Numbered from the stretch's first letter, positions 247-64,000 are shown. The stretch is 64,000 nucleotides of DNA from Aestuariibaculum lutulentum (GCF_032926325.1 NZ_CP136709.1:1167447-1231446), one strand, 5' to 3'. Numbers and translations are program-made. The notes: a model not told the origin generated them from the sequence alone.

Positions 247-259
247 ATAATTGAATATT

Positions 260-610: not shown

Positions 611-623
611 GTGGCAAAGGTAA

Positions 624-2539: not shown

Positions 2540-2567
2540 GTAACCAAATATTCTTTCAAAACTATAT

Positions 2568-46960: not shown

Positions 46961-47401
46961 AGCCATTACATAACCGAGATGCATACCTTCGTGAAATAAA
47001 ATAAAATCGAAAGCATCTTCAATTGTGTTTAATGTATTTCCTGTTGTAGAAACCGTATAACTGTTAAATGTTTTAAACACCCCGTTTTCAACATCCTCTT
47101 TTGTTTTTTCTAAAGTTGAAAACAACAAAGCTTTAATATTGTTAACTTCCTCTTGAGAAACAACTCCTTCAGGCTTTGTTCCTTTCATATATTTTGAAAT
47201 CATAACCTCATCAACCATCATTGGCAAACCCGATAACTTATATGCTAATAATTGCTGAGTAACCACAATATGGCCAATATTCCAAATAATGTTATTATTG
47301 AATCCTTCAGGAACTTTATTTAAATCCTCAAGTGAAGTATTTTCTAAAAATTGTCCAAAAAATTGTCTTGTTTTAGCTAAAATGTCTAATGTAAACTGCA
47401 T
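46937..47401 (-). CDS. DinB/YfiT-family (DinB_2) four-helix-bundle protein.
   Basis: 154 aa with conserved His residues (NIGHIVVTQQ...HEGMHLGYV). Confidence 0.65.
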   Translation of the reverse strand: MQFTLDILAKTRQFFGQFLENTSLEDLNKVPEGFNNNIIWNIGHIVVTQQLLAYKLSGLPMMVDEVMISKYMKGTKPEGVVSQEEVNNIKALLFSTLEKTKEDVENGVFKTFNSYTVSTTGNTLNTIEDAFDFILFHEGMHLGYVMALVRAINS

Positions 47402-47479
47402 GCCTTATTTTTTTGATAAATATACTTTAAATGACAAAATTACTTTTATTTTGGTATAAATTTTTACAAAAATAGGATT

Positions 47480-47827
47480 ATGAAAAAAGTATATTACCTA
47501 AAAACATGCAGTACCTGTATACGAATTTTAAAAGAGTTAAATCTTCCTTCCGACTTTATTCTACAGGATATAAAAACCGAAGAAATAACCGTTAAACAAT
47601 TAGAAGAGATGCATGCACTTTCCGGTAGCTACGAAGCTCTTTTTGGTAAACGTTCAAAACTTTACAAAGAAATGGATTTAAAGAACCAAGATATTACTGA
47701 ACGTGATTACAAAAACTACATTTTAGAGCATTACACCTTTTTAAGTCGTCCGGTAATTATAATAGATAGAAACATTTTTATAGGGAATAGTAAAAAAACC
47801 GTTGAAGCCATAAAAGCAGCTTTGTAA
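47480..47827 (+). CDS. ArsC/Spx/YffB-family thioredoxin-fold protein.
   Basis: 115 aa with an N-terminal CxxC-like redox motif (YYLKTCSTCIRILKEL). Confidence 0.8.
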   Translation: MKKVYYLKTCSTCIRILKELNLPSDFILQDIKTEEITVKQLEEMHALSGSYEALFGKRSKLYKEMDLKNQDITERDYKNYILEHYTFLSRPVIIIDRNIFIGNSKKTVEAIKAAL

Positions 47828-47963
47828 AATATATTTCATTACCCCAAAAACAGGAATTTTCGAAAACATTTGTAACAAAATTCTTAAAACCTCAACTAAT
47901 CAATAAAACCTTACTTTTTAGGGTTTTGAAACAAACTATCATCTTAACTTAATTTTATTAACC

Positions 47964-49373
47964 ATGACTATCACTGGTATTACTTTAATTGTACTAGCTA
48001 TTCTGTTGGCTGTTACAATCAACATTTTTTCATCTAATGCTTCAACAGAATCGGAATCCAAAGTTCCAAATCTTGTTCAAAAGTTAATTAATTTATGGAC
48101 TCTAAAGAAGTCTATCTACTTAGGTTTACTAGGTATATTTTTTGTTAGTCTAAGCGGAATGTTTTTCTACAATCCTGCCGGAACAGCAACTGCCATTCAA
48201 TATTTGTGGGGAGGAGATGCAGCAGTTACCACTCAAGGTGTAAAACTAAAACTGTGGGGAAAAACTATTCCTATTTCTTTTGAAATCGCTTTACAGGATA
48301 AAATCATAGAATTCGACAAACAAGGCAACCGAATTATCGATAAAAACGGAGCTGAGGAAGGTATCTACCACCGAAATGCACAAACCAGAGAATTCGCCGA
48401 TGCTATTAAAGCAGATATTGCAGCTGCATTAATTGTATCTATTGATTACAATAACGAAGATTTATTTTTAGAAATGGCCGACAAAAACCGATCGGAAAGC
48501 AAACTTGTTTACGCAAGAATTTACCCTGTATACGATCAAGCCTTAAAAAACACCTGCAAACTTATGGATGCGCAAGATTATATTTCAGGAGCTTCATCAC
48601 AATTTGATTATTATTTAAAAGATCAAATGGAAAACGGGATGTATTTAACCGAAGAAGTTTATGAAGATATTGACATCAGCCCAATTACCTCTTTAGATTC
48701 TACTAGAACCGTTGCAAAAGGAAAAATAAACAACGAAAAACGGGAGAAGAAATACAGAATTCGTAAAGACAAAAACGGAGATCCAATTCGAGATGCTTCG
48801 AACTCTTTAAAACGATACGGACTAACAGTACAACAAGTTGCAGTTACGAGTATTGATTGGGAAGCAAGTTTTGACAACCGACTTAAAGACCAAAAAGAAC
48901 AGGTTGCCCAAACACAACTGGAAAAACAAGAAGCCGAAAAAGAATATTATGCCACACAAAAAGCCATTGCAAAAGGTGAACGTGAAAAAGCCGAAACTCG
49001 CGTAAAACTTGAAAAAATACAATTAGAAAAAACTATTACGGCAGAAACTGCAGCAAAAACCGCTTCTTACAAAGAACAGGAAGAATCTAACCTTTTAGCC
49101 GCAGCAAAAAAATCGGCTGAAAAAATTAGAATTATTGCCGATGCTGAGGCTTACGAAATTTCTAAAAAAGTAAATGCCGGTATTACCCCTGAAAAACAAT
49201 TACAAATGGAATTAGATGCCAGTGTGCAGCGTACAAAAGCTTTAGCCGGCCCTAATGGCCTTCAACTACCAAACACAGTTTTTAGCGGCAGCACAGACAA
49301 TAAACAAGCAAGTATGCTTGAATCTATTTTAGGCGCTAAAATTTTAAGTGGTGAAATAGGAAGTGTAAAATAA
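47964..49373 (+). CDS. SPFH/band-7 domain membrane protein with a C-terminal coiled-coil.
   Basis: 469 aa with an N-terminal TM segment and an SPFH-like core (…LTVQQVAVTSIDWEASF…) followed by an Ala/Glu/Lys-rich coiled-coil. Confidence 0.55.
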   Translation: MTITGITLIVLAILLAVTINIFSSNASTESESKVPNLVQKLINLWTLKKSIYLGLLGIFFVSLSGMFFYNPAGTATAIQYLWGGDAAVTTQGVKLKLWGKTIPISFEIALQDKIIEFDKQGNRIIDKNGAEEGIYHRNAQTREFADAIKADIAAALIVSIDYNNEDLFLEMADKNRSESKLVYARIYPVYDQALKNTCKLMDAQDYISGASSQFDYYLKDQMENGMYLTEEVYEDIDISPITSLDSTRTVAKGKINNEKREKKYRIRKDKNGDPIRDASNSLKRYGLTVQQVAVTSIDWEASFDNRLKDQKEQVAQTQLEKQEAEKEYYATQKAIAKGEREKAETRVKLEKIQLEKTITAETAAKTASYKEQEESNLLAAAKKSAEKIRIIADAEAYEISKKVNAGITPEKQLQMELDASVQRTKALAGPNGLQLPNTVFSGSTDNKQASMLESILGAKILSGEIGSVK

Positions 49374-49392
49374 CATATTGAATTACTATTCA

Positions 49393-49430
49393 AAAAAAGG
49401 GAGCTATAAGCTCCCTTTTGTGTTTTTCGA
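49393..49430 (+). terminator. Rho-independent terminator.
   Basis: AAGGGAGCT-ataa-GCTCCCTT followed by TTGTGTTTTT. Confidence 0.55.
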
Positions 49431-49459
49431 AAGTTCTAATAAAGTCATATAATTTACTC

Positions 49460-49513
49460 CACAAAAAAAGCCTCACATTTCTGTAAGGCTTAAATTTTGC
49501 TCCCCCTCTTGGG
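49460..49513. repeat. Distal att-like direct repeat: a partial copy of the tRNA-Asn 3' end plus its downstream terminator hairpin.
   Basis: 54/54 bp identical to 59213-59266 (CACAAAAAAAGCCTCACATTTCTGTAAGGCTTAAATTTTGCTCCCCCTCTTGGG). The upstream flank is similar but imperfect. Confidence 0.75.
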
Positions 49514-49631
49514 GTTTTTCTATATAACACACAATATTAATAATCAGACACTTAACAAGACTACATCTTTACATTTCACCTTTAAACACACCCTTGAATA
49601 AATAAAATTAGGTACGTTTAATAATTCCTTT

Positions 49632-52600
49632 TTAACGTTTTAGAGCAAAATGCCCTTTGAAAACTCTACCGTCTTCTAAAATAACACTGAACCAATAATC
49701 ATCTGTAGGAAGCATTTCACCTTTAAAGGTACCATCCCATCCATTAGAGCTTGGATTTAACTGCTTTAACAATTTACCATAACGGTTATAAATAAAAATA
49801 TCACTTTGAATTTGAAACTGATCATTAACACCAGGAATATACCAAGTATCATTAATACCATCTCCATTAGGCGTAAAGTATCTTAGAAAACCTATTACCG
49901 AAACTTCTATTGAAGCTGTTCCACAGCCTTTTTTATCTCTTACATAAACCGTATGAATACCTGAACTAACATTTTCAAATATAGGGCTATCCTGAAAAGA
50001 TGAAAATTCATCATCTAAAGCATATTCATATTCTCCCTGTCCTAAGTTATTAGTATTAATTATAACTTTATTATTATTTGAAACATCTTCTATAACTATG
50101 TCCTCTGGAATAATATTAGCTAATTCAGAAGCATTTACAAAAACATCTCTAGTTCTAGAACACCCAGTTCCATCAGTCTTGGTTAAAGTTATAAAATAGG
50201 TTCCAGGCGTTGACACCGTTAAAGTAGGCGCATTAGAGAGTACTGTACCATCTTCATACACCCACTCATAATTAAAAATTTCATTTGCATTTGACTCTAA
50301 AGGATCTAGAACAATTGTAAACGTAGGGTCTGATGAACAAACTATTTGAGAATTTTCAATTGTAAAATCAGGCAAAGGATTAACTATAAACTGAATATCT
50401 GTAGATGCAATACAATTAGAATTTAAGGGATTTACTACTTTAACTGTTACAGTTTGAGTATTCGACCTAAATGGATTTGGTAAGGGACTTGGTAATTCTA
50501 TACCTAGACTATTATAATAATGAACCTCCATGCCTGTTTGTCCATTTAAAACAGAACTTTCTATTAATGATGTATCAAAATCATGCAGCCCATCCGAATC
50601 ATTTATACCATCGTCACATGATATTAGATCTGATACCATATTAGCTACAGGCTTCTTATCTACAATAAATTCTAAAGTCGTCTCATCAAAACAACTTCCA
50701 TCAGCTATATTATTATTTTCTACAACAACTTTTATAATTTGACTAGAGGTTAAAAACGGATTAGGCAGAGGGCTAGGTAAAGGATTATCATTTTCGTCAT
50801 AATAGAAAATGGAAACATCACTTAAAGACTGACTTCCTAAAACGGTTAACTCTACTTCAGATACATCAAAAGGATATTTACCATCAAAATCATCATCACA
50901 TTCTCTTGTTATTGTAACTGGATTAGCAACAGGATTAGCTTCAACATGCAATGTTATATGTGCTCCTAAACCTAAACAATCGTTATTTAGCCTACTATCT
51001 ACCCTAACATAAATATCTTGTGTATAAGGATATCCAATATTACTATAATCTGTTATATTCTCTATTTTATTAACTTCAGCCAATGCATCAGGTTCATTTT
51101 GGTAATAAGTAATTATTAATTCCTGTCCTGCAGGAAATAGACTGGCAATTTCATCATGAACAGTTTCAAAACTAAAATTTGAAATCCCATCAAAATCATC
51201 ATCACAAGTATAAAACTCCCTTTTAAAATCCAATGGAATCTTTGTTGTAGTTACTATTAAATTAACTTTTGAGACCCTAAAACATCCATTTTTATTTTCA
51301 ACTCTAGCCCAAACCACATCTAGACTAGGTGTATTATTAGAATATGTTGTTAAATTAGTTATTGGATCTTGATCATTTTCAGCTTTTAACTCCGATTCGA
51401 AAAATGAAACTTTCTCTTCGTCTGCATTAGTAGTTATTTCATTTATAACTTCATTTAAATTAAATGCACTGTAAAGACCATCTAAATCATCATCACATTG
51501 TTTTAGTTCAACAATTGGAGTCACCGACGGTAATTTTAAAACTTCAACTATAAAGGACGTTATTGCTTTACATTCACTATTTAAATTACTAACACATTCC
51601 ACATAAATGGTTTGCGAGCTTTGACTATTAACAAAGGTATTTGGCGAAGCTATTGGCTGTTTGAGGTCTTCATCTGTATAATAATTATAGTGCACTTCTG
51701 AATCTATTCCGTTAAGCAATAGATATTGTTCCTTTTCTGTTAGATCAAAAACAACAATTCCATCTGTATCAGACCCTGAGTCTGAATTATCGCATTGTGT
51801 TAAATTTGAAATATTATTAGGCAATTCCAATTGTGGAGTTTTATAAACACCTATATTAAACTTCGTAATATCATTACATTCCGGGTTCTGTTTGTTATAA
51901 ACTTCAGCAATAATTTCTTGTGTAAAAAACCCTAAGGCATTTGTATAAGCTTCAGGTGCATTAATTTTTATCCCATTATTATAATTTTCTATTCCTTCAT
52001 AATAATGCACTCCAAAAACATTAGAATCTAGACCATTTAAAACATATTTATTATGACCATATAAATCAAAAGAATTATCATCATACAACGTGCATAACCC
52101 TATATCATTAGGTTTACTTGCTATTGGCTGCTCATATATTGTAATCGTAGTTACTTCTGTTACAGTATTACCTCCTAAGGACGCAATAACACTAACCTCA
52201 TAGGTTCCAGCTTCAGAAAACACATGTGTAGACTCTAAATCTGTTGAAGTATTATTAGCTCCTGAAATTGGATCTCCAAAATCCCAATGGATTGAATCTA
52301 CTGTTTCTTCAAGAATAAATTTAGCTGTATCTCCAAAACATAAATTCTCAACACTGAAAGGAATTTCTTTTGTTTTCCTAGGTACTCCAGTAACATTTAT
52401 AAACAAATTAGAAGGAGGTCTACCACTACCAAAATCTGTTGATTTTATATAAGACCGAGTACCTAAGCACCCTTTATACCATGAAAAATCATTCCCTTCT
52501 TCTGTTCCTGCCAATTGAACTGCTGAAACTCCAATTCCTCCAGGAGAAGCCTCCTTTTTTACTTCTACCAATATCCTTTCTACTCCCGCCGGAACAATAA

Positions 52601-52988
52601 CTGGTGTTTCAAAATTAATCGTAAATATCACCTTATTACCAGACCATGCAGGTGGAGCTAATTCTACCTGACTACTTCCTATTAATTTAGATTCGTCAAA
52701 GCTATTGGGAAAATCAAAATCTATCTCATAAATATTAAAACTTAAATTGGAGTTATCAGCAACCGACATGTAAAGACCAATTTCTCCTTGATCTATAATA
52801 AATTCTTCGTCTGGATTAACACCAAAATCTAAAAGCGTAAATGTCCTAGCTAAATGCTCTGTTTCTTCACAAGATCCAACATAGGACCTTACAAGATTAT
52901 CACCTACATTATGGGTTAGTTTTATTTGACTAAATAAACTTAAATTAACTCCTAACAGTAGGATGATAAAACTTAAAAAAAATCTCAT
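49632..52988 (-). CDS. Large secreted adhesin-like protein with a T9SS type-B C-terminal sorting domain (CHU_C / gliding-motility-associated CTD). Island cargo.
   Basis: 1118 aa with a signal peptide and internal Ig/PKD-like repeated modules with recurring ...DENDNPLPSPLPNPF... linkers. The C-terminus ...YNRYGKLLKQL...GEMLPTDDYWFSVILEDGRVFKGHFALKR is typical of type-B T9SS CTDs. Confidence 0.75.
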   Translation of the reverse strand: MRFFLSFIILLLGVNLSLFSQIKLTHNVGDNLVRSYVGSCEETEHLARTFTLLDFGVNPDEEFIIDQGEIGLYMSVADNSNLSFNIYEIDFDFPNSFDESKLIGSSQVELAPPAWSGNKVIFTINFETPVIVPAGVERILVEVKKEASPGGIGVSAVQLAGTEEGNDFSWYKGCLGTRSYIKSTDFGSGRPPSNLFINVTGVPRKTKEIPFSVENLCFGDTAKFILEETVDSIHWDFGDPISGANNTSTDLESTHVFSEAGTYEVSVIASLGGNTVTEVTTITIYEQPIASKPNDIGLCTLYDDNSFDLYGHNKYVLNGLDSNVFGVHYYEGIENYNNGIKINAPEAYTNALGFFTQEIIAEVYNKQNPECNDITKFNIGVYKTPQLELPNNISNLTQCDNSDSGSDTDGIVVFDLTEKEQYLLLNGIDSEVHYNYYTDEDLKQPIASPNTFVNSQSSQTIYVECVSNLNSECKAITSFIVEVLKLPSVTPIVELKQCDDDLDGLYSAFNLNEVINEITTNADEEKVSFFESELKAENDQDPITNLTTYSNNTPSLDVVWARVENKNGCFRVSKVNLIVTTTKIPLDFKREFYTCDDDFDGISNFSFETVHDEIASLFPAGQELIITYYQNEPDALAEVNKIENITDYSNIGYPYTQDIYVRVDSRLNNDCLGLGAHITLHVEANPVANPVTITRECDDDFDGKYPFDVSEVELTVLGSQSLSDVSIFYYDENDNPLPSPLPNPFLTSSQIIKVVVENNNIADGSCFDETTLEFIVDKKPVANMVSDLISCDDGINDSDGLHDFDTSLIESSVLNGQTGMEVHYYNSLGIELPSPLPNPFRSNTQTVTVKVVNPLNSNCIASTDIQFIVNPLPDFTIENSQIVCSSDPTFTIVLDPLESNANEIFNYEWVYEDGTVLSNAPTLTVSTPGTYFITLTKTDGTGCSRTRDVFVNASELANIIPEDIVIEDVSNNNKVIINTNNLGQGEYEYALDDEFSSFQDSPIFENVSSGIHTVYVRDKKGCGTASIEVSVIGFLRYFTPNGDGINDTWYIPGVNDQFQIQSDIFIYNRYGKLLKQLNPSSNGWDGTFKGEMLPTDDYWFSVILEDGRVFKGHFALKR

Positions 52989-53093
52989 GTAGGTAAAACT
53001 CAGAAAACAATAATAACGGGCAAGATAAAAATTATATACGACGTATTTTATTACAAATACACATTTTAGATAAACTGCTTACAGACTAGAATA

Positions 53094-53240
53094 TTACTCC
53101 CTCTGAGTAGCTCTGTATGCACTAAGCATTTCTTCAAAAGTAATAGGCTTATATTCAGACGTATGAATTGTAGAATACCTATTCACTTGCGCAAAACCTA
53201 ACATTGGTAGGATAATAAAAATTAAAAACATATTTTTCAT
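53094..53240 (-). CDS. Possible small secreted peptide (48 aa).
   Basis: Self-translated MKNMFLIFIILPMLGFAQVNRYSTIHTSEYKPITFEEMLSAYRATQRE, which has a signal-peptide-like N-terminus. There is no other support. Confidence 0.2.
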   Translation of the reverse strand: MKNMFLIFIILPMLGFAQVNRYSTIHTSEYKPITFEEMLSAYRATQRE

Positions 53241-53258
53241 AGGACAAAAAATTAAATA

Positions 53259-54077
53259 CTATTCATAAATAAACACTCCTGAATCCTGAACATCTTGGGC
53301 TAACAATTCGTAAGAAATAGGATAATTATCGGCATCGTATTGGTATACTACTTTAAAAATTTCATTTCCGTCTGAATCAGATATACTTGTTACATTATTT
53401 GGAATAAAATTTACATTTAATCGCTTCTTTGAAAAAATAGAAGGTGCGTTAGGTATATATATCCCTGTTTCAACCCCTACTTTAAAAAACGGATTAATTT
53501 TATCATCTAGAACGACATTAAAAATACTTGAGCTTGATTCACCTGCATAATATTCTGTTATGGAATATTGATGTAACTTACCATCTTGATAACTAAACAA
53601 TAGTTTTCTATGCAGTTCTCCATCTATATAAAACTTATACTCACCTAGATTCTCTCCATCATACTTATATTCACCTACTACAATACCATCCTTTCGGATA
53701 AAACTAATTTTACCATTAGAATATTCATAATCATACTTTAGACAATCGACACAATTCGCTAAATCAAATGAAAAGTCATTGTAACTTTCATAGTTACCAC
53801 CACCATGTTCTGGATTAGCAAGAATTACACTTTTCAGTATGTTCTCCTGATAAATTAACTGATGAAAATCTTTCCAAGTTTGATAATTAATAATTTTTAT
53901 TAGCTTATCATTTTCAAAGTAAAAATAAAGCTTATCATACTGATCGCTACCTTCTACTCTTAACAATGTTTTGGCTTCTACTACAACCGGATCTGGACTG
54001 CCTTCCTCTGAAGAACCAGAACTACAACCTATTAAAAACAACACCATTAAAAGTATCTTTAAAACATTTTTAATCAT
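53259..54077 (-). CDS. Hypothetical lipoprotein (island cargo).
   Basis: 272 aa with a lipoprotein signal (LFLIGCSSGSS). Tyr-rich. Confidence 0.5.
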   Translation of the reverse strand: MIKNVLKILLMVLFLIGCSSGSSEEGSPDPVVVEAKTLLRVEGSDQYDKLYFYFENDKLIKIINYQTWKDFHQLIYQENILKSVILANPEHGGGNYESYNDFSFDLANCVDCLKYDYEYSNGKISFIRKDGIVVGEYKYDGENLGEYKFYIDGELHRKLLFSYQDGKLHQYSITEYYAGESSSSIFNVVLDDKINPFFKVGVETGIYIPNAPSIFSKKRLNVNFIPNNVTSISDSDGNEIFKVVYQYDADNYPISYELLAQDVQDSGVFIYE

Positions 54078-54690
54078 ACTTTTTATTTTTAATAAAAATT
54101 TTTAAAAAACTAATATACAACACTATACCATAAAATATATACGGTTTTCCTTATTTCATAAACGCCGTTAACTCCTTCCTTTATCTTTTGTTTTTATTAA
54201 TTAAGAAGAAATACTTCGCAAACTTAAAAAACACTAATTAACATAAATGTAATACACTGATTACAAAAACATTACATATATTTACCCTCATAAAAACCCA
54301 ATACTCCCTACTATTAATAATAGTATACTTTTTGTTTAACCATTAATTATACTTATTATGTCACATCACGGAATGAATTCACTACACGGCATTAACGCCA
54401 TGTGCAAGCACGACACCTCCCACCACGGACGATTCGGAAGAATGTTTAGCTGTTTAAACCCCAACTACAACCCTCCTCTAGAACTTTCAAAACTCGGAAT
54501 AAAAGATGGTCCAATGGATGGAGGAAATGCTTACACTCTGATTAATTACAAATGAGTAACAGTTGATCAAAATGGCACAACTGAACTTCACATTGATTTT
54601 GACACGATGCACTGTGATTAAAGACTAATTGTAAATAAAAAGAAGCTAACCACTTCCCTTTAACTTTTCTATTTCAGAACTAATTTTCCT

Positions 54691-54876
54691 CTAAACCACC
54701 TTACCGTAACTATCCTGAGTAATTTTCATATCGGAATGCCCTAAAAGTTCACTTACTATTTCCATAGGCACGTTATTATAGAGCAATACAGTACTAGCAA
54801 AAGTACGTCTAGCTATATGGGTGATTAGATTCTTTTCTATTCCAACAACTCCAATCATTTCTAATAGATAAGAACC
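54691..54876 (-). pseudogene. Remnant of a tyrosine-integrase 3' end (last ~60 codons), paralogous to the integrase at 56097..57293.
   Basis: The minus strand translates to ...IGVVGIEKNLITHIARRTFASTVLLYNNVPMEIVSELLGHSDMKITQDSYGKVV*, almost identical to the C-terminus of the 56097 integrase (HMARRTFASTVLLYNNVPMEIVSELLGHSNMKITQESYGKVV). Similarity is lost upstream of 54876. Confidence 0.75.
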
Positions 54877-55113
54877 AAATGTTTAAGAAAGGGAAAGAGT
54901 CTTATTCTAACTCAACTAACTCAATTAGTTGGTAAGGATAGACAGTACCTATATAAAATTGAAAAAAATGTTGTAACGTTTTGCAGATTTGCGATGGGCG
55001 GGTTTTTCAGGACAAATATTCATATGGAGCATTACACTTCCATTAACCACAACAGTGTCATAGAAGCACGTCACCTCGATATTGCAAATGTACTGTTACC
55101 TGCTGCCATTCTT

Positions 55114-55599
55114 CTATCCTACAAAGTCTGAACGATTTGTATTTGGGTCATATTGAATTTCCAAGTCTGTTCCATTCCAAATCGCTTCACAACTTTCAAG
55201 TCGGTATGTGTCACCTTGGTTCCAACTTGCACCAATATAATCTTCAATTAAGTCTTCAATGAAAACTCTTTCACCAATTACAATATCTTTTGGTATTAAG
55301 TATGCTGCAAAAGGCGACTTGAAACTATGAGGATAATAAAATGTCCAGTCAACCACAGTTTCAAAATCATTATTATCGTCCGAATAAAAGTCGACCCGAT
55401 AGTCTCCAACAATTTCAATTTCTCCCGTTTTCTTGTTTTGAACCACAGAATACTTTGAACGAATTTTATCAGAAGGTTCAACCTTTTTTACTAATGGATT
55501 AAGTCCACTTTTAGCAGCCTTATTTATAGTGTCCTTGTCACGGGCAGTTTTTATAACACGTAATCCTTGCGTTTTTTTATTTCTGTTCAAGAATGCCAT
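55114..55599 (-). CDS. Hypothetical protein (island cargo, second gene of a two-gene cassette).
   Basis: 161 aa with no recognisable motifs. Overlaps the upstream gene by 23 nt. Confidence 0.45.
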   Translation of the reverse strand: MAFLNRNKKTQGLRVIKTARDKDTINKAAKSGLNPLVKKVEPSDKIRSKYSVVQNKKTGEIEIVGDYRVDFYSDDNNDFETVVDWTFYYPHSFKSPFAAYLIPKDIVIGERVFIEDLIEDYIGASWNQGDTYRLESCEAIWNGTDLEIQYDPNTNRSDFVG

Positions 55600-55942
55600 T
55601 TGATACTATTTTTATATTGTGTTGTTTTAAGTCAATTTTCAAACAAGTGTCGGGATTTTGTCTAACAATTTTCAGAAGGTCGTCATCTGTTAAAAATTCT
55701 GTATCAACTATTAAGTGGACGCAATTTGCACATTTTCGAAATGTAGAATTTGTAGCTTCTAATTTGTCCCAACTCATTTTATAGGGGCAATTCATTTTCT
55801 TCACAAATTCGTCTTTGTCTGTATAAATATCTTTTGTTAATGGGTCAAATTTCATTGCTCGTGTCTTTTTATGGTAACAGATAACTCCTAATATATTTAC
55901 AATTTCAGTAATAGCTTTAACACTTGAAATTCCTCTAAACAA
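55577..55942 (-). CDS. Hypothetical small Cys-containing protein (island cargo). The true start may be the internal Met at 55855.
   Basis: 121-aa ORF. The MKFDPL... version is 92 aa and has a CPY...CANC...C pattern suggesting a small zinc-binding fold. Confidence 0.4.
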   Translation of the reverse strand: MFRGISSVKAITEIVNILGVICYHKKTRAMKFDPLTKDIYTDKDEFVKKMNCPYKMSWDKLEATNSTFRKCANCVHLIVDTEFLTDDDLLKIVRQNPDTCLKIDLKQHNIKIVSNGILEQK

Positions 55943-56022
55943 ATTTTTTAAAATTGAAATTTAGTGTTTATAAAATTATAAATTTCCCTCATGTAAAAAA
56001 CGATGAAATTTGCAATAAGAAA

Positions 56023-56062
56023 CTTGATGTTGCAAAAAACTTAATTTTTCTACAACATCAAG
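56023..56062. promoter_or_regulatory. 10-bp perfect inverted repeat (CTTGATGTTG-N20-CAACATCAAG) between the integrase 3' end and the two-gene cassette.
   Basis: Read directly from the sequence. Could be an integrase terminator on the minus strand or an operator for the downstream cassette. Confidence 0.4.
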
Positions 56063-56096
56063 ATACTTAATACAGTTTAAAACTCCTTTTTACTAC

Positions 56097-57293
56097 CTAA
56101 TCACTTTGTTTTAACCTCTCAATTTCCAAACTAACTTTTTTCTGTACTACCTTTCCATAGCTTTCCTGCGTTATCTTCATATTACTATGACCAAGTAGCT
56201 CACTGACAATCTCCATAGGCACATTGTTATAAAGCAATACAGTGCTTGCAAAAGTACGTCTAGCCATATGGGTAGTTAAATTTTTTTCAACCCCTATAAT
56301 CGCTGCTATTTCCTTTAAATAGGAATTATAACGCTGATTACTTATTCTAGGAAACACTAAATCATCATCGGTATACTTACATAAAATATTTAAAGCTTTT
56401 GATAATAATGGAATTGATAAATCCTTATCTGTCTTTTCTCGTTTCATCTTAATCCACTTATTACCGTCAAACCCATTAATAATATTTGTTTGTTTAAGGT
56501 TCATTAATTCCAAATAAGGTAACCCAGTATAACAACTGAATATAAATAAATCCTTTACTAGTTTAAGTCTAGGCTGTATAAATTCATAACTCTCAAGCTG
56601 TATTAACTCTTCTGGTGATAAAAACACAACCTCCTTCTTAACCTTTTTAGCTTTATAAAGCATAAATGGATCTACCTGTAAATGTCGTTCAGCTACAGCA
56701 ACTTTAATTATCTTTTTAAAACGCTAAATCTTTTTATTGATGGTAACCTGTTTTAACTGCGTTTTATGCCCTACCTTATAGTAGTAGTCCAATTCACTTA
56801 AAAAGTTCATATCAAGTTTCTTTAGTGGATAATCCTTGGTTTTAAACTTCCATTTCACAAAAGCTTTAATATCATTTTTAACGTATTCAAACTTCTCGTA
56901 GGTTACTTGTTTTATCTCAACACCAACAAGCGTTTTTATGCGTTTTAAGTAACGTTCAAAGTATTCAATCACGTTGTATTCCTTAGCTGTTTTAACGCCT
57001 TTATACAGGCTAAAAATATCGTCTACAGTAAAAGCTTCATCTTTAACCTGAAGCAATAAAAAAGCCCTATTAATTTTAGTTTTAATAAGGCTTAGCTGTT
57101 GATTTATTTCTTTTCTATCTGGTTCAGGTGGTTTAACTACCTGTTGTTTACTATCCCAGTTATTAGCATTTACGAACTGACCTGTAGAAAATGTTTTTCT
57201 GACTTTATTATGTGTCAATCTACACATTAGTGCACAAACTCCTTTAGCATTTTTTTTCTGCTTATTTATTATAAATAGTATGTTGATTTTCAT
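56097..57293 (-). pseudogene. int: Tyrosine site-specific integrase (Bacteroidetes arm-binding + SAM-like + catalytic domains) interrupted by a single in-frame TAG at 56724-56726.
   Basis: ORFs 56724..57293 (N-terminal, MKINILFIINKQKKNAKGVCALMCRLTHNKVRKTFSTGQF...) and 56097..56663 (catalytic, ...HMARRTFAST...LLGHS...Y) are in the same frame. They are separated only by a TAG, and the bridging translation ...TINKKI*RFKKIIKVAVAERHLQVDPFMLYKAKKV... is continuous. Confidence 0.8.
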
Positions 57294-57359
57294 TTTGAAT
57301 AAGATTTTAAATTAAGGTGGAAGGTAATTGACTAAATAAAGTTATTTATCTTTAGAAGA

Positions 57360-59051
57360 TTGAACATTATGGAGTTAAATGCAATGTGTTTATTCCTATA
57401 TTATGTAGAAGTTATGCGTAAAAGTAATACACTTGAATTTATAGAAAAATCAAAAAATGTACATGGTGATAAATATGACTATTCAAAAGTTGAATATTTA
57501 GGAGCTACAGAAAAAGTCTGTATCATTTGCCCGGAACATGGACCTTTTTATCAAATTCCAAATTCTCATTCTAGAGGTAAAGGATGTTTGAAATGTGCAC
57601 GAAAAATAGCAATTAAAAAAACATATTCTAATACTGAAAAATTTATTGAAAAAGCCAGAAAAAAACATGGAAACAAATATGACTATTCAAAAGTTGAATA
57701 TATAAAAGCTAAAGAAAAAGTCAGTATTATTTGTCACAATATAGATGAAATAACAAATGAAAAACATGGAGAGTTTTTACAACAACCATCTAATCATCTA
57801 GCAGGTGGAAATTGCCCCAAATGTACTGGAAATTATATGACACAAGAACTTTTTATAAAAAGAGCAAGAGTAATTCATAACAACCAATATGACTATTCAA
57901 AAGTTGAATACAAAACTGCACGTAAAAAAGTAAATGTTATTTGTCCAGAGCATGGACTATTTTCGCAGGTACCAGATAGTCATATAAGAGGTAACGGATG
58001 TCCTAAATGCAGTAATATTTACTCACCCACAACTAGAGAGTGGATTGAAAAAGCTAAGAAAATCCATGGTAACCGATATGATTATTCCAAAACAGTCTAT
58101 AAAAAAACTCATTCTAAAGTATCCATCATTTGTAAAGAACACGGAGTTTTTTTGCAAACACCAGCAAATCACCTCAATGGTAATAACTGTCCTAAATGCA
58201 CTGGAAACTATATGGATAAAAGTTTTTTCATACAAAAAGCAAACGAAATCTATAAAGATAAAAGTGGGGCTCCATTATATGATTATTCATTAGTTGATTA
58301 CGTAGATTCCTCTACTAAAGTGACAATCATATGCCATAATAAAGACCCTGAAACAGGTAAAGAACATGGCGAATTTAATAAAACTCCTAATACCCTCTTA
58401 ACTCAGCATGGTTGTCCTAAATGTGGATTAGAATCATTGCGACAAATAAAAAGCTTAACTCGTTTAAGTAATAAGGAATTTCTTGATAAGGCATTTCCAA
58501 ACGAATATGAATATCTAAATGGTTACAAAACAGCTGCGTCTAAAATGCATATTAAATGTAAAAAATGTGGGCATAAATTTTGGCAGAAAGCTAATAATCA
58601 CTTAATGGGGGCTGGTTGTCCAGCTTGCAAAATGAGTAGGCTAGAAAGAGCAGTTTGTAATTATCTCAAAAAACATAACGTTAAATATAAAATGCAAAAA
58701 AGATTTGAATGGTTAGGGAGACAGAGTTTAGATTTTTATTTACCTGATTTCAACATGGCTATTGAATGCCAAGGTATCCAACATTTTGAACCAAAAGATT
58801 TCTTTGGTGGCGATGATGAATTAAAAAATATAGTAAAACGAGATAATAGAAAGCTTAAAAAATGTTCATCCAACAACATAGAAATGGTTTATGTTATAGA
58901 CAATGAAAAGTATCTAGAAAAAAAATATCATTTTGATATTGCAGAACCTTTTTCAGGTAATGTATGTTATAAAATTATGCATATTAATAATTTTGAGAAT
59001 TATATCAACCAATTAGTTGAGATGTCTAATTTTTTTGAAAAGAAATTATGA
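57360..59051 (+). CDS. Protein with six tandem ~60-aa Cys/His zinc-ribbon repeats fused to a C-terminal DUF559/Vsr-like PD-(D/E)xK endonuclease domain (homing-endonuclease-like).
   Basis: 563 aa. Repeat consensus F(I/L)EKA..(I/K)HGNKYDYSKVEY.....KV.IIC.EHG.F.Q.P..HL.G.GCPKC occurs six times. The C-terminus LDFYLPDFNMAIECQGIQHF matches the DUF559 (R.DFY.P...LAIE.DG..H) nuclease core. The start may be the internal Met (MRKSNTLEF). Confidence 0.7.
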   Translation: MNIMELNAMCLFLYYVEVMRKSNTLEFIEKSKNVHGDKYDYSKVEYLGATEKVCIICPEHGPFYQIPNSHSRGKGCLKCARKIAIKKTYSNTEKFIEKARKKHGNKYDYSKVEYIKAKEKVSIICHNIDEITNEKHGEFLQQPSNHLAGGNCPKCTGNYMTQELFIKRARVIHNNQYDYSKVEYKTARKKVNVICPEHGLFSQVPDSHIRGNGCPKCSNIYSPTTREWIEKAKKIHGNRYDYSKTVYKKTHSKVSIICKEHGVFLQTPANHLNGNNCPKCTGNYMDKSFFIQKANEIYKDKSGAPLYDYSLVDYVDSSTKVTIICHNKDPETGKEHGEFNKTPNTLLTQHGCPKCGLESLRQIKSLTRLSNKEFLDKAFPNEYEYLNGYKTAASKMHIKCKKCGHKFWQKANNHLMGAGCPACKMSRLERAVCNYLKKHNVKYKMQKRFEWLGRQSLDFYLPDFNMAIECQGIQHFEPKDFFGGDDELKNIVKRDNRKLKKCSSNNIEMVYVIDNEKYLEKKYHFDIAEPFSGNVCYKIMHINNFENYINQLVEMSNFFEKKL

Positions 59052-59212
59052 ATACAAAACGAAGCGATTAATAATAATTTTATTAATGGGTGTCTTTTAA
59101 AAATTAATAGGTATCCAAATGGGTGTCTTTTTTTAGTAGAAGGATAAATTAAGTTTCCTAAATTAAACACATAGAGGAATTAGCAATATCTTGTAAACCC
59201 CAAATTTTACTT

Positions 59213-59266
59213 CACAAAAAAAGCCTCACATTTCTGTAAGGCTTAAATTTTGCTCCCCCTCTTGGG
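59213..59266. repeat. Proximal att-like direct repeat overlapping the 3' 14 nt of tRNA-Asn plus its terminator hairpin.
   Basis: 54/54 bp identical to 49460-49513. Confidence 0.75.
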
Positions 59267-59326
59267 CTCGAACCAAGGACCCTTTGATTAACAGTCAAAT
59301 GCTCTAACCAACTGAGCTAAGGAGGA
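59253..59326 (-). tRNA. tRNA-Asn (anticodon GTT).
   Basis: Hand-folded on the minus strand. Acceptor TCCTCCT/AGGGGGA (one G-U), U8 A9, D-arm GCTC-AGTTGGTTA-GAGC, anticodon arm TTTGA-CTGTTAA-TCAAA, T-arm CTTGG-TTCGAGC-CCAAG, discriminator G. Followed by terminator hairpin AAGCCTTACAGAAATGTGAGGCTT + T-run. Confidence 0.85.
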
Positions 59327-59496
59327 GTGTTGCTTTCTCTATCCAGAGAGCTGCTTGTGCAAATAATATGCAAACCTTAACCGGATTAATATGCGAATAT
59401 AAAATATATTTAATCAATCATCATCCAAAATGTTTTATATTTTTAAGAATCGATTCATACTTTTTTTGAGTTTGAATTACACATATAAACAGTATC

Positions 59497-62427
59497 TCAT
59501 TCTAAATACTTTTTGAGTTTTTCTGCAATTGCTTTTGCTAAAAGAGGAGGTACTGCATTACCTATCTGTATTCCCAGAGAGGTAATATTACCAAAAAACC
59601 TATATGAATCATCAAATGATTGGATTCGAGCAGCCTCCCTTGGAGTAATAGTTCTATTCTTTAACGGATGGGTAATTCTCCCAACAGAAGGAGTGTTAAT
59701 CCTTGTAGTTATTGTGTAAGAAGGTTTTGTTCTGTCTATTCTACCATAAGCTCCACTATGAATAGATTTTGTATGATATTCCCTAGGAAGATCTTTGATT
59801 CCTTGTCCTTCTTTTATAAGTTTTAAAATTTCAATTGTTTTGGGTGTTGGTTTTGAGCTAACATGATTAAAAATATATCCATTAGAACTTCTCATATTAA
59901 TCTGGTAGTTTGAGAATCTTTCTTTGTAATTTTTTGTTGATATTTTTTCATTTCCCTCTCCAGGCTCTAATTCAGGCAAATCTCCGATTGCCTCCCATGC
60001 GCTAATAAATTTCTTAGGATTTTTTTGTGGTTCAGGAAAAAGTTCTTCTGAATTTAATCCAAGTCTATTTCCTATAAAAAATGCTCTTTTCCTTAATTGC
60101 GGAACTCCAAATTCATTTGCACTTAAAACCTTTGAAGTTACATTATACCCAAGGGCTTCAAATTTCTCTATAATCTCTCTTTTAACACTTCCGTTATTAT
60201 AATTTAAAATACCTGGTACATTTTCAATTACAAAAAATTTAGGATTTAAATCTTTAACCATCCTGTAATATTCTAAGAACAAATAATTTCTTTTATCATT
60301 AAAGAACTTAAAATCCTTTCTAATTCTATTACCCGCCATTGAAAACCCTTGGCAAGGAGGTCCTCCAATAATTACATCGCATTCGGCTGATTTTTGCTTG
60401 AATATATTTTCAATAGAGATTTCAGATCTTTTATCTTTTTCTGAACCAGAAACATTTCTTATATCGTCAACTATTAATTTAGTGTTAGGATGGTTATAGA
60501 GATATGTTTTTTCTATTCTTTTATCATACTCAACAGCTGCTACAATATCAAATCCTGCTTTTTCAAAACCATTTGAAAGCCCCCCTGCACCAGCAAACAA
60601 ATCTAAAACTGAAAACTTGTTTTCTTTTTTATCTTTTGTAAACTCCTTCCTATCCCATTTGTATGAGTTGTTTATCATTTTATAATCAAAATGGGATAAC
60701 AGAAGCTTTTCTAAATTTATAACTTTCCCTTTTTTATCTAATACAGCATAATTATTTATGATTTCAGGGATTATAAATTCATAAAGTTGAGAAGAGGTTA
60801 CAGCTCCATTCTGAATCAGAAAATCCTGAACTGAATTAACTATAAAAACCTCACCATCTTCACAAGGTTTTGATAATACTGGTTTATTACAATTTGATTT
60901 TTTGTATGTGTAAACAAAATCCCCGGTCAAAGTATTATTTTTGTTTATTCCTTGTGTTCCTGAAGATACCGCTTGCTCTTGTAAAATTGCTGATTCAAAT
61001 TTGAAGCCGGCATTAGTACATGCATCGATAATAGCCTTCCATACATTTAAATCTCTATTATGAAATGTAAAGGACAGATAAGATTCTGGCTTTAAAACTC
61101 TATACATTTCCTTAAATGCTTCACCTATTCTTTTCGAATAATCTTCATAATCCTTTTCTCGAAAATTATCAATGATTATTTCATCTTCAAATTTAGGTTT
61201 ATTTTTCAACCAGGTATTCCATAAATGACTTAAAGAAAAATAAGCTATACTTTCTCCATAAGGAGGATCTGTAAAAATATAATCAACACTTTCGGAAGAA
61301 ATTGTAGTATTTCTACTATCTAAATTTAATATTTCAGCATTTTCTCCTCCAATATTTTTAAGTTCCTTTTTCCCTTTTTTAATAGCGTTAAATCTTAGTT
61401 CAAAACAATCTATCACATTTCTCTCTGCATGAATATTAGGAACCCAAAATTTACTTATTACCCAACCTGACTTATAAATTCCCTTTTCTGGATCACCTGG
61501 TAGCATACTACTACAGTTAGCCAGCATTGAAGTAAAAATGAAATCAAACAATTCTCTAATATCTTTATTTTTAAGCTTATTAATTTCATATTTAATCTCT
61601 GCTAATATCAATAATGCTCTCTTAGAAAATAGTTCATCAATTGTTTCTTTATTATTCCTCTTTACATATTGAGGAATTTTATCCGTTGGAATTAAATTTT
61701 TTTTGGTTTTAGATAATTCATCTAATAATTTCTCACTTTTTTGAAAAATTTTCAAATCATAACCTGTAGCTTTTTTAACAAACTTACCGTGAATCTCGCA
61801 TTCTCCTTTTAGAGTGAGTAATTCTTCAAATTCCCAAACGGAACAATTAATTTTTGAAACTTTATTGCAGACAGGACAGGGAGATTCATATAAATTCCCA
61901 TATAAATTAACTACCTTACTAAAAATTTTATTATAATTATTTTGAAACTCCTCTAAATCAATTGAACTGATAGAATTTCTAACAATCGAAATACTCATAG
62001 GATTTAAATCAACTCCAATTACCCTCCTTTTAGTTTTAAGTGACTCTATAACAGTAACACCTGACCCCATAAAAGGATCTAATACCACTTGATTCTCTGA
62101 AGTGAAATATTCGATATATTGACGTACAATATTATGAGCCTTTCTCCCCCAATATTTATGCATCAAATAATGCTTAGGATGTGAATGAGCTTTTAAATTA
62201 CCCAATTTAGGCTTTCCATTATTTATTGTTGCTACGTGTATTTCAGAAGCATTGTTTTTTTGATCAATAATATAATTATCAATACTTTCTTTCAAATATC
62301 TTCTGTGTCCAGAGTTTCCAATCCTAATATACTCAATTAAACCAGAGTCTGCATATCTTTTAACTGTTGATTCTGAGACCGATAACACTTCCGCTGCCTC
62401 TTTTGTAGTAAGTTGATTTTTCTTCAT
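59497..62427 (-). CDS. Triple-domain DNA methyltransferase: N-terminal HTH, an N6-adenine/N4-cytosine MTase domain and a C5-cytosine MTase domain (Type IIS-like fused modification enzyme).
   Basis: 976 aa. HTH at the N-terminus (TTKEAAEVLSVSESTVKRYADSGLIEY). Amino-MTase motifs I (VVLDPFMGSGVTV) and IV (FTDPPYGES). C5-MTase motifs I (VLDLFAGAGGLSNGF), IV (IIGGPPCQGFSMAGN), VI (FFVIENVPG), VIII (QLRKRAFFIG) and X (GNAVPPLLA). Confidence 0.9.
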   Translation of the reverse strand: MKKNQLTTKEAAEVLSVSESTVKRYADSGLIEYIRIGNSGHRRYLKESIDNYIIDQKNNASEIHVATINNGKPKLGNLKAHSHPKHYLMHKYWGRKAHNIVRQYIEYFTSENQVVLDPFMGSGVTVIESLKTKRRVIGVDLNPMSISIVRNSISSIDLEEFQNNYNKIFSKVVNLYGNLYESPCPVCNKVSKINCSVWEFEELLTLKGECEIHGKFVKKATGYDLKIFQKSEKLLDELSKTKKNLIPTDKIPQYVKRNNKETIDELFSKRALLILAEIKYEINKLKNKDIRELFDFIFTSMLANCSSMLPGDPEKGIYKSGWVISKFWVPNIHAERNVIDCFELRFNAIKKGKKELKNIGGENAEILNLDSRNTTISSESVDYIFTDPPYGESIAYFSLSHLWNTWLKNKPKFEDEIIIDNFREKDYEDYSKRIGEAFKEMYRVLKPESYLSFTFHNRDLNVWKAIIDACTNAGFKFESAILQEQAVSSGTQGINKNNTLTGDFVYTYKKSNCNKPVLSKPCEDGEVFIVNSVQDFLIQNGAVTSSQLYEFIIPEIINNYAVLDKKGKVINLEKLLLSHFDYKMINNSYKWDRKEFTKDKKENKFSVLDLFAGAGGLSNGFEKAGFDIVAAVEYDKRIEKTYLYNHPNTKLIVDDIRNVSGSEKDKRSEISIENIFKQKSAECDVIIGGPPCQGFSMAGNRIRKDFKFFNDKRNYLFLEYYRMVKDLNPKFFVIENVPGILNYNNGSVKREIIEKFEALGYNVTSKVLSANEFGVPQLRKRAFFIGNRLGLNSEELFPEPQKNPKKFISAWEAIGDLPELEPGEGNEKISTKNYKERFSNYQINMRSSNGYIFNHVSSKPTPKTIEILKLIKEGQGIKDLPREYHTKSIHSGAYGRIDRTKPSYTITTRINTPSVGRITHPLKNRTITPREAARIQSFDDSYRFFGNITSLGIQIGNAVPPLLAKAIAEKLKKYLE

Positions 62428-62495
62428 ATTTTCCGTAACCGTTCAAAACGTTCACAAATCTAATAAATAATGATTAAAATTGTTAAAAATATTAA

Positions 62496-64000
62496 ATGAC
62501 ATCAGAAGATTTTTACACCAAGTTTAAAGAAAAAGGATTTTTATATTCTAAAGAGCAAATTTATAATCTCTTTATTTCATTACAAACAAAGCCTTTTGTT
62601 ATACTTTCAGGTATTTCAGGTTCTGGTAAATCTAAAATAATAGAAATTTTTGCAGAAATATTATCAGAAAATGATAGCCAATATGAATTAGTTCCTGTAA
62701 AACCAAATTGGAGAGATAATCGTAATGTTTTCGGCTATCATAATTTGGTGAACGACACTTATTCTATTACTCCAATCTTAAAATTAATTCTAAAAGCTCA
62801 TTCAAATCCTGACAAACCTTATTTTCTTATTCTTGATGAAATGAATCTAGCAAAGGTTGAACAATATTTTGCCGATTTTTTAAGCTTAATCGAAACAAGA
62901 AGATATACACCTTCTTCTATCGGTACAATAAGTGACCTTAAAAGTGTTTTTAGTTTTCCAGCAGGCACATCTTTATCAGAGGCGATTATAATGTCATGTT
63001 TGCATATAAATCCTAATAATGTTGCTATGTCTATTGGTGATTATCGTTCAGATATATTCTCTACTCTATGGAAAGAAACATTCTTTAACGGAGACCCTGC
63101 TAATTGGACTCCACAATACAGAACAGAAATCAATCAGAAGGATTCCAGTAGTCTACCTTCAAGATTAGCTGGAAAATTATTAGAAGGCAGTGACGGTAGC
63201 TATAAACTCAAAAATTATGACACATTAGATAGTGCATCTCAAGTTGCCTTTGATTCAATAAAAACTACTTATGAAAGTATTAAAAGTCAATTTTTTGATA
63301 TAAAACAACATTCTATACAACTTCATTCAAATTCAGTTTTAAAATCAAATGATTCTTTACCAGCCTACAATTCTGGTGATGCATTTGTACAAGGTTCTTA
63401 TCCAAATTATTCCTATTACGTTCCGCAAGAGATCGAGATTCCTTTAAACTTATTCGTTGTAGGAACTGTAAATGTAGATGAAACCACACATATGTTTAGC
63501 CCTAAAGTATTAGATAGAAGTAATGTAATTGAAATGAACGAAGTGAATTTAGAAAGCATACTTAATAAACCTGAATACTCTAATAATGACAACCTGGCTG
63601 ATGATAATTATTTCTTTGCTACAGATATAGCTCCATTAAAAATAAATTTATCACATACAGCACATGTTATTGAATTTGAAAGCCAATTCAAAACTCAATT
63701 TGATGATATTTTTAAAATTAATGAAAGTTTAAAAAAATACAATAAACACTTTGGCTATAGGGTATTTAATGAAGTTTCTAATTATTGCTTAAATGCTATT
63801 AGTCAATCTTCAAGTGCTAATATTACAGTTGCTACAGATATTCAAATACTTCAAAAAATATTGCCAAAATTACATGGTTCTGCCGAACAGCTATTTAATC
63901 CACTTATGTCCATATTGTCTTTATGTCTTTCAAACGATAGTAATAATTTATCTGCACAATCGGAATATACTGAAGAGGAATTTGAAAATATTTTAAATGA
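62496..64000 (+). CDS. McrB-family AAA+ GTPase (restriction-system motor subunit), partial with the C-terminus beyond the window.
   Basis: Self-translated from an ATG at 62496. Walker A (ILSGISGSGKSKI) and the McrB signature block (YFLILDEMNLAKVEQYFADFLSLIE). No stop before the window end. Confidence 0.85.
   Translation, partial: MTSEDFYTKFKEKGFLYSKEQIYNLFISLQTKPFVILSGISGSGKSKIIEIFAEILSENDSQYELVPVKPNWRDNRNVFGYHNLVNDTYSITPILKLILKAHSNPDKPYFLILDEMNLAKVEQYFADFLSLIETRRYTPSSIGTISDLKSVFSFPAGTSLSEAIIMSCLHINPNNVAMSIGDYRSDIFSTLWKETFFNGDPANWTPQYRTEINQKDSSSLPSRLAGKLLEGSDGSYKLKNYDTLDSASQVAFDSIKTTYESIKSQFFDIKQHSIQLHSNSVLKSNDSLPAYNSGDAFVQGSYPNYSYYVPQEIEIPLNLFVVGTVNVDETTHMFSPKVLDRSNVIEMNEVNLESILNKPEYSNNDNLADDNYFFATDIAPLKINLSHTAHVIEFESQFKTQFDDIFKINESLKKYNKHFGYRVFNEVSNYCLNAISQSSSANITVATDIQILQKILPKLHGSAEQLFNPLMSILSLCLSNDSNNLSAQSEYTEEEFENILN

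Follow-up and report, generated by a model that had tools for sequence, protein, structure and literature searches.

What kind of system is encoded by two divergent genes at the right-hand end of a 64,000-nucleotide (nt) stretch of the Aestuariibaculum lutulentum genome (GCF_032926325.1, NZ_CP136709.1:1167447-1231446)? We call this whole stretch the window and count positions from its first nucleotide. One gene encodes a protein in which a helix-turn-helix (HTH) is fused to two DNA methyltransferases; the other encodes a McrB-like AAA+ NTPase, referred to here as the motor. An initial annotation had proposed a Type IIS or LlaJI-like restriction system lying beside a tRNA gene. Our analysis leads us to conclude that the two genes belong to a well-conserved module, which is an undescribed architectural form of known McrBC-type restriction-modification systems. 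We consider it reasonably likely that they open a module of this type that comprises three genes and four functions, similar to LlaJI and PcaRCI, and that it works by the mechanism proposed below.

Results

Two Complete Methyltransferases in One Protein

The methyltransferase gene and its domains are as follows.

59497-62427, minus strand: fusion of HTH, amino (probably N6-adenine) methyltransferase and C5-cytosine methyltransferase, from the open reading frame (ORF), Pfam, NCBIfam and PADLOC matches, and motifs
62269-62412, minus strand: HTH_17 (MerR/excisionase-type) domain, residues 6-53
60880-62163, minus strand: amino-methyltransferase domain, residues about 89-516
59509-60615, minus strand: C5-cytosine methyltransferase domain, residues 605-973

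The ORF starts with ATG and encodes 976 amino acids (aa). Its product is identical (100%) to a database protein of A. lutulentum that is currently labelled as a cytosine methyltransferase only, and its orthologues in Tenacibaculum and three metagenome contigs (loci L004 and L006-8) are 975-984 aa long. At the N terminus, residues 6-53 match HTH_17 (Pfam E value 2.4e-10) and the TIGR01764 excise domain (2.1e-7); this HTH is probably an autoregulator of the module.

The amino-methyltransferase domain matches PADLOC MTase_II (PDLC03319, residues 89-516, E 2.6e-55) and Pfam N6_N4_Mtase (PF01555, E 1.1e-21), and Pfam MethyltransfD12 matches residues 99-169. We located its defining motifs directly: motif I (FxGxG) is FMGSG at residue 119, and catalytic motif IV ((D/N/S)PP(Y/F/W)) is DPPY at 387. 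The roughly 265 aa between them are presumed to be the target-recognition region. Motif I thus precedes motif IV with the recognition region in mid-domain, and the Pfam N6_N4 model therefore matches in two separated pieces in permuted order. A DPPY motif favours N6-adenine as the modified base; because motif IV has this form, the enzyme probably makes N6-methyladenine (m6A).

The C5 domain covers the whole of the Pfam DNA_methylase profile (PF00145, positions 1-324 of 324, E 7.5e-77) and also matches NCBIfam dcm (1.6e-69) and, in the PDB, M.HaeIII (2.9e-40). The conserved motifs FxGxGG, PCQ, ENV, QxRxR and GN(A/S)V are all present, in the canonical order I to X: FAGAGG at 611 (I), PCQGFS at 691 (IV), ENV at 735 (VI), QLRKR at 777 (VIII), REAARIQSF at 930 (IX) and GNAV at 956 (X). 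The Pfam and NCBIfam scores of the domains in this protein are far above chance.

A McrB-like Motor of the NxD Branch

The second gene diverges from the first and contains the following elements.

62496-64000, plus strand: NxD-branch McrB-like AAA+ NTPase, the first 501 of its 544 codons, the stop being expected at about 64128-64130
62610-62633, plus strand: Walker A, GISGSGKS, residues 39-46, with G39, S41, G42, G44 and K45 invariant in 72 family members
62835-62846, plus strand: Walker B, DEMN, residues 114-117, followed by the helix LAKVEQYFADFLSLIE, with D114, E115, M116 and N117 invariant in the 72 members
63471-63482, plus strand: NxD(E) loop, N326-V-D328-E329, in place of sensor 1, with N326 and D328 invariant and E329 present in at least 90% of the 72 members

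The gene begins with ATG at 62496 and runs off the end of the window with 501 codons visible. An A. lutulentum "McrB family protein" of 544 aa matches its product at 100% identity, so that just 43 codons lie outside. The protein matches Pfam AAA_5 (E 2.1e-6). It has the Walker A motif and the DExx Walker B with conserved helix that mark the McrB family: the Walker B block and helix align with McrB DEINRANLSKVFGEVMMLME, and GISGSGKS and DEMN...YFADFLSLIE, invariant or nearly so in the 72 sequences, together align to E. coli McrB residues 26-139. The initial annotation had thus read both proteins well, in assigning to the first an N-terminal HTH and complete N6A/N4C and C5 motif sets, and in recognising the second as McrB-like by its DEMN…FADFLSLIE block.

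Two features set the motor apart. In place of the canonical McrB loop MNxxDR (NxxD) it has N-x-D-E, within GTVNVDETT; GTVN[VMI]D is found in all relatives, and the block G-T-V-N326-x-D328-E329 is invariant or nearly so across the 72 family members. In addition, only 38-45 residues precede Walker A in the family, which lacks a DNA-binding domain at the N terminus. A census of 2024 (Bell et al., 2024; PMC11090510) describes an NxD branch that keeps NxD strictly, usually followed by E or D, that is often associated with methyltransferases, and whose GTPase-domain insertions are "likely" specificity domains; the window's particular motor family is not described there. The NxD branch includes CoCoNuT, and shares with our motor an N-x-D followed by E; the window family differs in having no coiled coils, RNA-binding domains or two-component regulators.

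The Complete Module Is Conserved across Phyla

If the two genes are part of a restriction system, a nuclease should accompany them. All 12 related loci that we compared, which are independent of one another, contain an amino-methyltransferase, a C5-methyltransferase, a McrB-like gene and, directly downstream of the motor, a McrC-like gene. They come from Bacteroidota, Spirochaetota, Campylobacterota, Clostridia, Bacilli and Gammaproteobacteria: Tenacibaculum (L004), metagenome contigs (L006-8 and L015), a contig that is 55% identical (L009), plasmid pSpe of Thiospirochaeta (L010), Aliarcobacter (L011), Alkaliphilus (L012), Enterococcus faecalis (L013/14), Pseudocolwellia (L095) and Peribacillus (L096). 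The motor is 81% identical to that of the window in Tenacibaculum and 75% in L006-8. At these four loci a 975-984-aa fused methyltransferase is divergent to a 543-544-aa motor, the stop of which overlaps the start of a 532-535-aa gene with DUF2357 and PDDEXK_7 domains; at L015 all module genes are co-oriented. The McrC-like partners match DUF2357 (3e-22) and PDDEXK_7 (6e-17) and have invariant residues P434-D435 and D454-x-K456 (L004 numbering). No conserved gene was found beyond the nuclease in the related loci. At least 14 further McrB-like clusters agree with a methyltransferase cluster in organism and in the length of the longest contig.

The flanks of the module differ at each of the 12 loci, and mobile-element genes often lie beside it, as with RteC in L004, the integrase in L009 and, in L095, an integrase together with MobC and a coupling protein. 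We conclude that the module is horizontally mobile. One partial match aside, PADLOC misses the system. The window protein matches just 310-437 and a second stretch of the PADLOC PDC-M26A profile (724 positions; 7e-56), leaving an N-terminal part of the profile, about 300 residues long, unmatched; for the McrC-like partner PADLOC gives no match. At the Alkaliphilus transvaalensis locus (L012), positions 1-3091 hold a canonical pair, McrB (AAA_5 and McrB_lid, NTAD loop) with McrC (PF10117), at a distance of 4 kb from the NxD module, placing both branch types side by side.

The methyltransferases are fused to differing degrees. In L010-L013 there are two genes, an HTH fused to the amino-methyltransferase and a separate C5 gene, which overlap by 16-25 nt in L011-L013. 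In L009 the HTH is a 79-aa gene of its own, the amino-methyltransferase is frameshifted and the C5 gene stands apart; the frameshift, at 6448-7970 of that contig, divides the amino-methyltransferase into ORFs of 285 and 138 aa, and could be a sequencing error or mark an inactivated copy. The window ORF continues without a break across the position at which the separate genes overlap elsewhere, which makes the fusion a simple in-frame merger. We had considered that the triple fusion might be restricted to Flavobacteriaceae, and dropped this idea when a homologue search returned about 45 fully fused clusters, of 900-1012 aa, from several phyla. The triple fusion is thus recurrent or widely transferred, and not an assembly artefact.

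An Insertion in the Motor Travels with the Methyltransferases

How might a motor that has no N-terminal DNA-binding domain recognise its target? The family has an additional segment inside the AAA+ domain.

62901-63449, plus strand: family-specific insertion of about 180 aa, residues about 136-318, placed after the Walker B helix and before the sensor strand
62973-63215, plus strand: winged-helix fold within the insertion, about residues 160-240, from fold matches

A Pfam search of the insertion gave no match. Its fold matches are to winged-helix proteins, not to B3 domains, and within the winged helix lies a putative recognition helix, NWTPQYRTEINQ (about residues 201-213), in which the Arg is invariant and the Glu, Asn and Gln are nearly so. 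The insertion is rare, being found in only 28 clusters among 1.84 billion representative proteins, and full-length insertion-bearing matches (about 500-575 aa) have it at roughly one internal position. Comparison with NxD relatives that lack it revealed a consistent difference.

Insertion-bearing proteins: Walker A preceded by 38-45 residues; gap of about 180-220 from Walker B to the sensor; methyltransferase pair present in every case
79 insertion-less NxD relatives: Walker A preceded by 150-650 residues in most of those resolved; gap of 46-114; methyltransferase pair absent

The insertion and the methyltransferase pair therefore co-occur strictly (12/12 loci versus 0/79 insertion-less relatives). 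For 3 of the 79 a distant C5 match is all that appears, and most of the 79 have a DUF2357-like gene downstream. This pattern, insertion in one group and N-terminal extension in the other, implies that a DNA-reading module has apparently moved from the N terminus into the ring, and we propose that the insertion is the predicted reader of the DNA target. When the window is compared with six distant loci, identity is 44-48% in the methyltransferase variable regions and 38% in the winged helix; in the catalytic cores it reaches 59-66%. Because the variable regions and the winged helix are conserved in parallel across phyla, this comparison suggests that the loci may share one target or closely related targets.

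In most non-flavobacterial members the second half of the insertion carries a four-cysteine cluster, CLxxxGxxCxxxxCxYxxxxKYKC, which is probably a zinc site. The window clade has lost all four cysteines (residues about 280-305, after the winged helix).

These data bear on a different interpretation of the module, in which motor and nuclease form a Type IV McrBC system and the methyltransferase is independent of them, as an orphan, an anti-restriction enzyme or the source of a self mark, passed over by the nuclease in its attack on phage DNA that is modified in another way. As a rule McrBC systems belong to Type IV; the census calls the methyltransferase association "surprising" and offers no explanation (PMC11090510); and one of the winged-helix matches of the insertion is the methyl-DNA-binding domain of DpnI. 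Against this, the methyltransferase pair and the insertion-bearing motor are inseparable in the loci just compared, their divergent or operon arrangement is kept across phyla, and their variable parts are conserved in parallel. None of the modified-base readers named in reviews (SRA/ADAM, YTH and EVE) is among the fold matches of the insertion, nor does Pfam detect one. Finally, the two characterised McrBC-like systems that are linked to methyltransferases, discussed below, both cut unmethylated DNA. We therefore regard an independent methyltransferase as improbable, and favour a restriction-modification module.

A Candidate Operator between the Divergent Genes

The presence of an HTH on the methyltransferase drew attention to the short region between the two genes.

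62428-62495: divergent intergenic region of 68 bp, between the methyltransferase start and the motor ATG
62435-62455: conserved block GTAACCGTTCAAAACGTTCAC, an imperfect palindrome beside the methyltransferase start; candidate operator
62455-62462, minus strand: candidate Bacteroidetes-type -7 box, TAGATTTG
62475-62482, plus strand: candidate Bacteroidetes-type -7 box, TAAAATTG

The -7 boxes were read by eye against the Bacteroidetes consensus TAnnTTTG. The block GTAACCGTTCAAAACGTTCAC is kept in L004, L006 and L007 and more weakly in L009, making it a candidate operator for the HTH; the promoter roles of the two boxes are likewise putative. In L011, L012 and L013 the element AAGTCTATC lies just upstream of the methyltransferase start, with AAGTCAATC in L010. 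This element belongs to the Firmicutes, Campylobacterota and Spirochaete loci and is unlike the block of the flavobacterial loci, a difference that would be expected where operators and their HTH domains change together.

The Module Lies Outside the Neighbouring Integrated Element

The methyltransferase gene ends close to a tRNA gene.

59252-59326, minus strand: tRNA-Asn(GTT)
49453-49513 and 59206-59266: 61-nt direct repeat, 98% identical (attL/attR), the right copy covering the last 15 nt of the tRNA-Asn and a hairpin-like stretch downstream of it

The 61-nt repeats bound an integrated element of about 9.7 kb to the left of the tRNA-Asn, and the restriction-modification module is outside it. 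We found no defence domains in the genes of this element, and no other defence gene beside the module. The proposal of a defence islet at a tRNA hotspot was accordingly dropped: the repeats put the element across the tRNA from the module, and the element itself has no such domains.

The element looks degenerate. Its tyrosine integrase (56097-57293, minus strand) is in two ORFs, one with Arm-DNA-bind_5 and SAM_5 (189 aa) and one with the catalytic domain (188 aa), and at a distance of 1.4 kb (54646-54874) there is a second copy of 229 nt that shares 73% identity with the catalytic part. The element also carries a gene (49632-52988, minus strand) whose product of 1118 aa combines PKD domains with the CHU_C signal for type IX secretion. 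At 57360-59051 (plus strand) a 563-aa protein has at least four tandem repeats of about 200 nt with CxxC pairs that match the DUF4379 treble-clef zinc finger; by eye, its C-terminal tail is Vsr/DUF559-endonuclease-like.

Most 1-kb segments from about 47000 to 64000 have a G+C fraction of 0.28-0.33, and the module region (60001-64000) 0.28-0.30, compared with 0.33-0.41 for most of the first 40 kb. Such low G+C would fit horizontal acquisition of the DNA to either side of the tRNA. No candidate target for the module emerged from a search for under-represented 5- and 6-mers in the 64-kb window: GTCTC (26 observed versus 37 expected) and GACGC (19 versus 28) are not outstanding. The strongest palindrome depletion is that of GGATCC (2 observed versus 11 expected, z = -3.6), possibly a sign that a BamHI-like system is encoded elsewhere in this genome.

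Discussion

Relation to Known Systems

The closest precedents are McrBC-like systems that act on unmethylated DNA. LlaJI, from Lactococcus lactis pNP40, has methyltransferases for both strands of the asymmetric site GACGC/GCGTC; its McrB-like NTPase sets specificity, its McrC-like subunit is a PD-(D/E)xK protein, and the system, which is carried on mobile DNA, restricts unmethylated DNA (PMC1459862, PMC12707154). H. pylori has a LlaJI-like system. The window module is similar in having methyltransferases that may serve both strands, a McrB-like motor and, in its relatives, a McrC-like nuclease, and to this extent, as a statement about the kind of module, the LlaJI-like designation of the initial annotation was right. 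In its construction the module differs, and in the narrow sense it does not belong to the LlaJI family. LlaJI has two separate 5-methylcytosine (m5C) enzymes, whereas here one amino-methyltransferase and one C5 domain are fused with an HTH; LlaJI R1 (585 aa) has an N-terminal B3 domain, whereas the window motor has none and carries an internal winged-helix insertion instead; and the four LlaJI genes are co-directional with an NxxD loop in the motor, whereas ours are divergent with NxD, LlaJI being compared here by its published description.

PcaRCI of Pectobacterium carotovorum RC5297 consists of an AAA+ GTPase-like protein, a DUF2357 nuclease and a cognate methyltransferase; it blocks unmethylated plasmids and phage experimentally and is thought to be mobile (PMC8989522). 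It differs from the window module in its single Dcm-like enzyme, its palindromic CCNGG target, the N-terminal region of its motor and the large extensions of its nuclease. A further lead is the "atypical type II" locus Clocel_4005-4008 of Clostridium cellulovorans, which has two methyltransferases and two restriction genes and which its authors liken to LlaJI; deletion of both restriction genes increased conjugation tenfold (PMC11779793). Its resemblance to the window module is by description only.

The McrBC systems of E. coli and Thermococcus, which are Type IV, cut modified DNA, have no methyltransferase, and combine an NxxD loop with an N-terminal DUF3578 or YTH reader; the window motor has NxD and a reader that is probably internal.

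The module also differs from Type IIS systems. M.Alw26I, M.Esp3I and M.BsmBI combine an N-terminal amino-methyltransferase and a C-terminal m5C methyltransferase in one chain and modify an asymmetric site. They serve single-chain Type IIS nucleases, and no N-terminal HTH has been reported for them. Moreover, C5 domains of the M.Alw26I/M.Esp3I type are circularly permuted, with motifs IX-X before I-VIII (PMC5944983), whereas the C5 domain of the window protein runs canonically from motif I at 611 through motif X at 956; the protein is therefore not an enzyme of that type, as had been suggested, and the analogy is functional only. The label "Type IIS" is itself wrong because the nuclease, as seen in the relatives, is a two-subunit, NTP-driven enzyme of McrBC type, an AAA+ motor and a PD-DxK protein encoded by two genes, rather than one chain that cuts a set distance from its asymmetric site.

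Proposed Mechanism

The strict linkage to methyltransferases, together with the precedents of LlaJI and PcaRCI, leads us to infer that the module restricts unmethylated DNA. We propose that each methyltransferase domain would mark one strand of a shared asymmetric target, one on adenine and the other on cytosine, and so protect host DNA. The motor would form a ring, in which the winged-helix insertion, lying after Walker B and ahead of the sensor loop, would be the part that reads the unmethylated target. The McrC-like subunit would dock in the ring, stimulate NTP hydrolysis and translocation, and cut DNA by its PD-DxK site. On entry into a new host, the HTH would bind the conserved block in the 68-bp spacer and balance the expression of methyltransferase and nuclease.

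Several observations weigh against this scheme. We found no experimental work on any member of the family in the literature, and the NxD branch as a whole is without a characterised member, its nucleotide specificity included (PMC11090510). The search for an operator palindrome picked out L004 alone and detected none in the window, L006 or L009, the palindrome being degenerate in the window itself. By sequence alone the motor matches solved McrB with marginal scores (E 0.1 from one sequence and 0.017 from a profile; hhalign probability 13%), and in fold comparison MoxR, BchI and RavA come slightly above McrB. Lastly, no A. lutulentum orthologue appears among 108 homologues of the Tenacibaculum McrC-like protein.

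Given its ranking in the fold comparison, the AAA+ protein might instead be a MoxR/RavA-like ATPase, adjacent to the methyltransferase for chaperoning, remodelling or the like. Such an ATPase would not account for the obligatory downstream partner with DUF2357 and PDDEXK_7, which is the architecture of McrC; a DExN Walker B with its helix, and N-x-D in place of sensor 1, are features of the McrB branch (PMC7680126, PMC11090510); and the NCBI name is McrB family protein. We consider this explanation very improbable. Because the scores against solved McrB are marginal, we assign the motor to the McrB branch through its fold, its motifs and its obligatory McrC-type partner, the motifs and partner being the chief grounds on which it appears to belong there.

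The search result for the nuclease deserves more weight. A McrC-like partner had been predicted to lie just past the window; the family bears out this prediction at every locus compared, and in A. lutulentum itself such a gene would lie beyond position 64000. The search returned eight McrC-like orthologues at 74-100% identity, none of them from A. lutulentum, although its methyltransferase and motor are both in that database, each from an NCBI record on a contig of 3.78 Mb. Since no orthologue was found, the system may be broken in A. lutulentum: its nuclease gene may have been lost, replaced or turned into a pseudogene, and equally the database record may simply be lacking. Pseudogenes, by established practice, receive no NCBI protein record. 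The module could then be a remnant, its methyltransferase an orphan or an epigenetic enzyme and its motor deprived of a cutting partner. Other searches did not help: exact look-ups of four window proteins and of the database copy of the motor gave no record, a scan of genome contigs returned only distant Chitinophaga paralogues, without insertion or methyltransferases, and an exact 39-nt pattern from the end of the window had no match in metagenomes. Yet the absence of a database entry is indirect evidence, and all 12 related loci are complete. Furthermore, both visible genes are uninterrupted and of full length (976 aa compared with 975-984 aa, and 544 aa compared with 543-545 aa, in orthologues), a state at odds with long-standing decay. 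On this evidence we think a remnant unlikely, and retain as our preferred reading a restriction-modification module, which may be complete and active in A. lutulentum.

Implications

A specialist would not be astonished by this architecture, because NxD motors linked to methyltransferases, as well as GTPase domains with insertions, had already been pointed out in the census. It is possible, and we suggest it tentatively, that the module goes further: that recognition is built into the AAA+ ring itself instead of being tethered flexibly at the N terminus, with binding of the unmethylated asymmetric site directly coupled to the hydrolysis loop; that this is the first tractable McrB motor of the NxD branch; and that the module represents a single spreading specificity. 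The last idea arises because the insertion travels only with one m6A and m5C pair, so that the whole family may be a single specificity that spreads horizontally.

Few McrBC-type nucleases that cut unmethylated DNA have been studied, LlaJI and PcaRCI being the known cases. With three or four genes, and with members across phyla that include Enterococcus faecalis and clostridia, this compact family offers an entry to the uncharacterised NxD branch. It allows one to ask how an NxD motor works and how the reading of DNA fits inside an AAA+ ring. In the organisms that carry it, the module probably hinders genetic manipulation.

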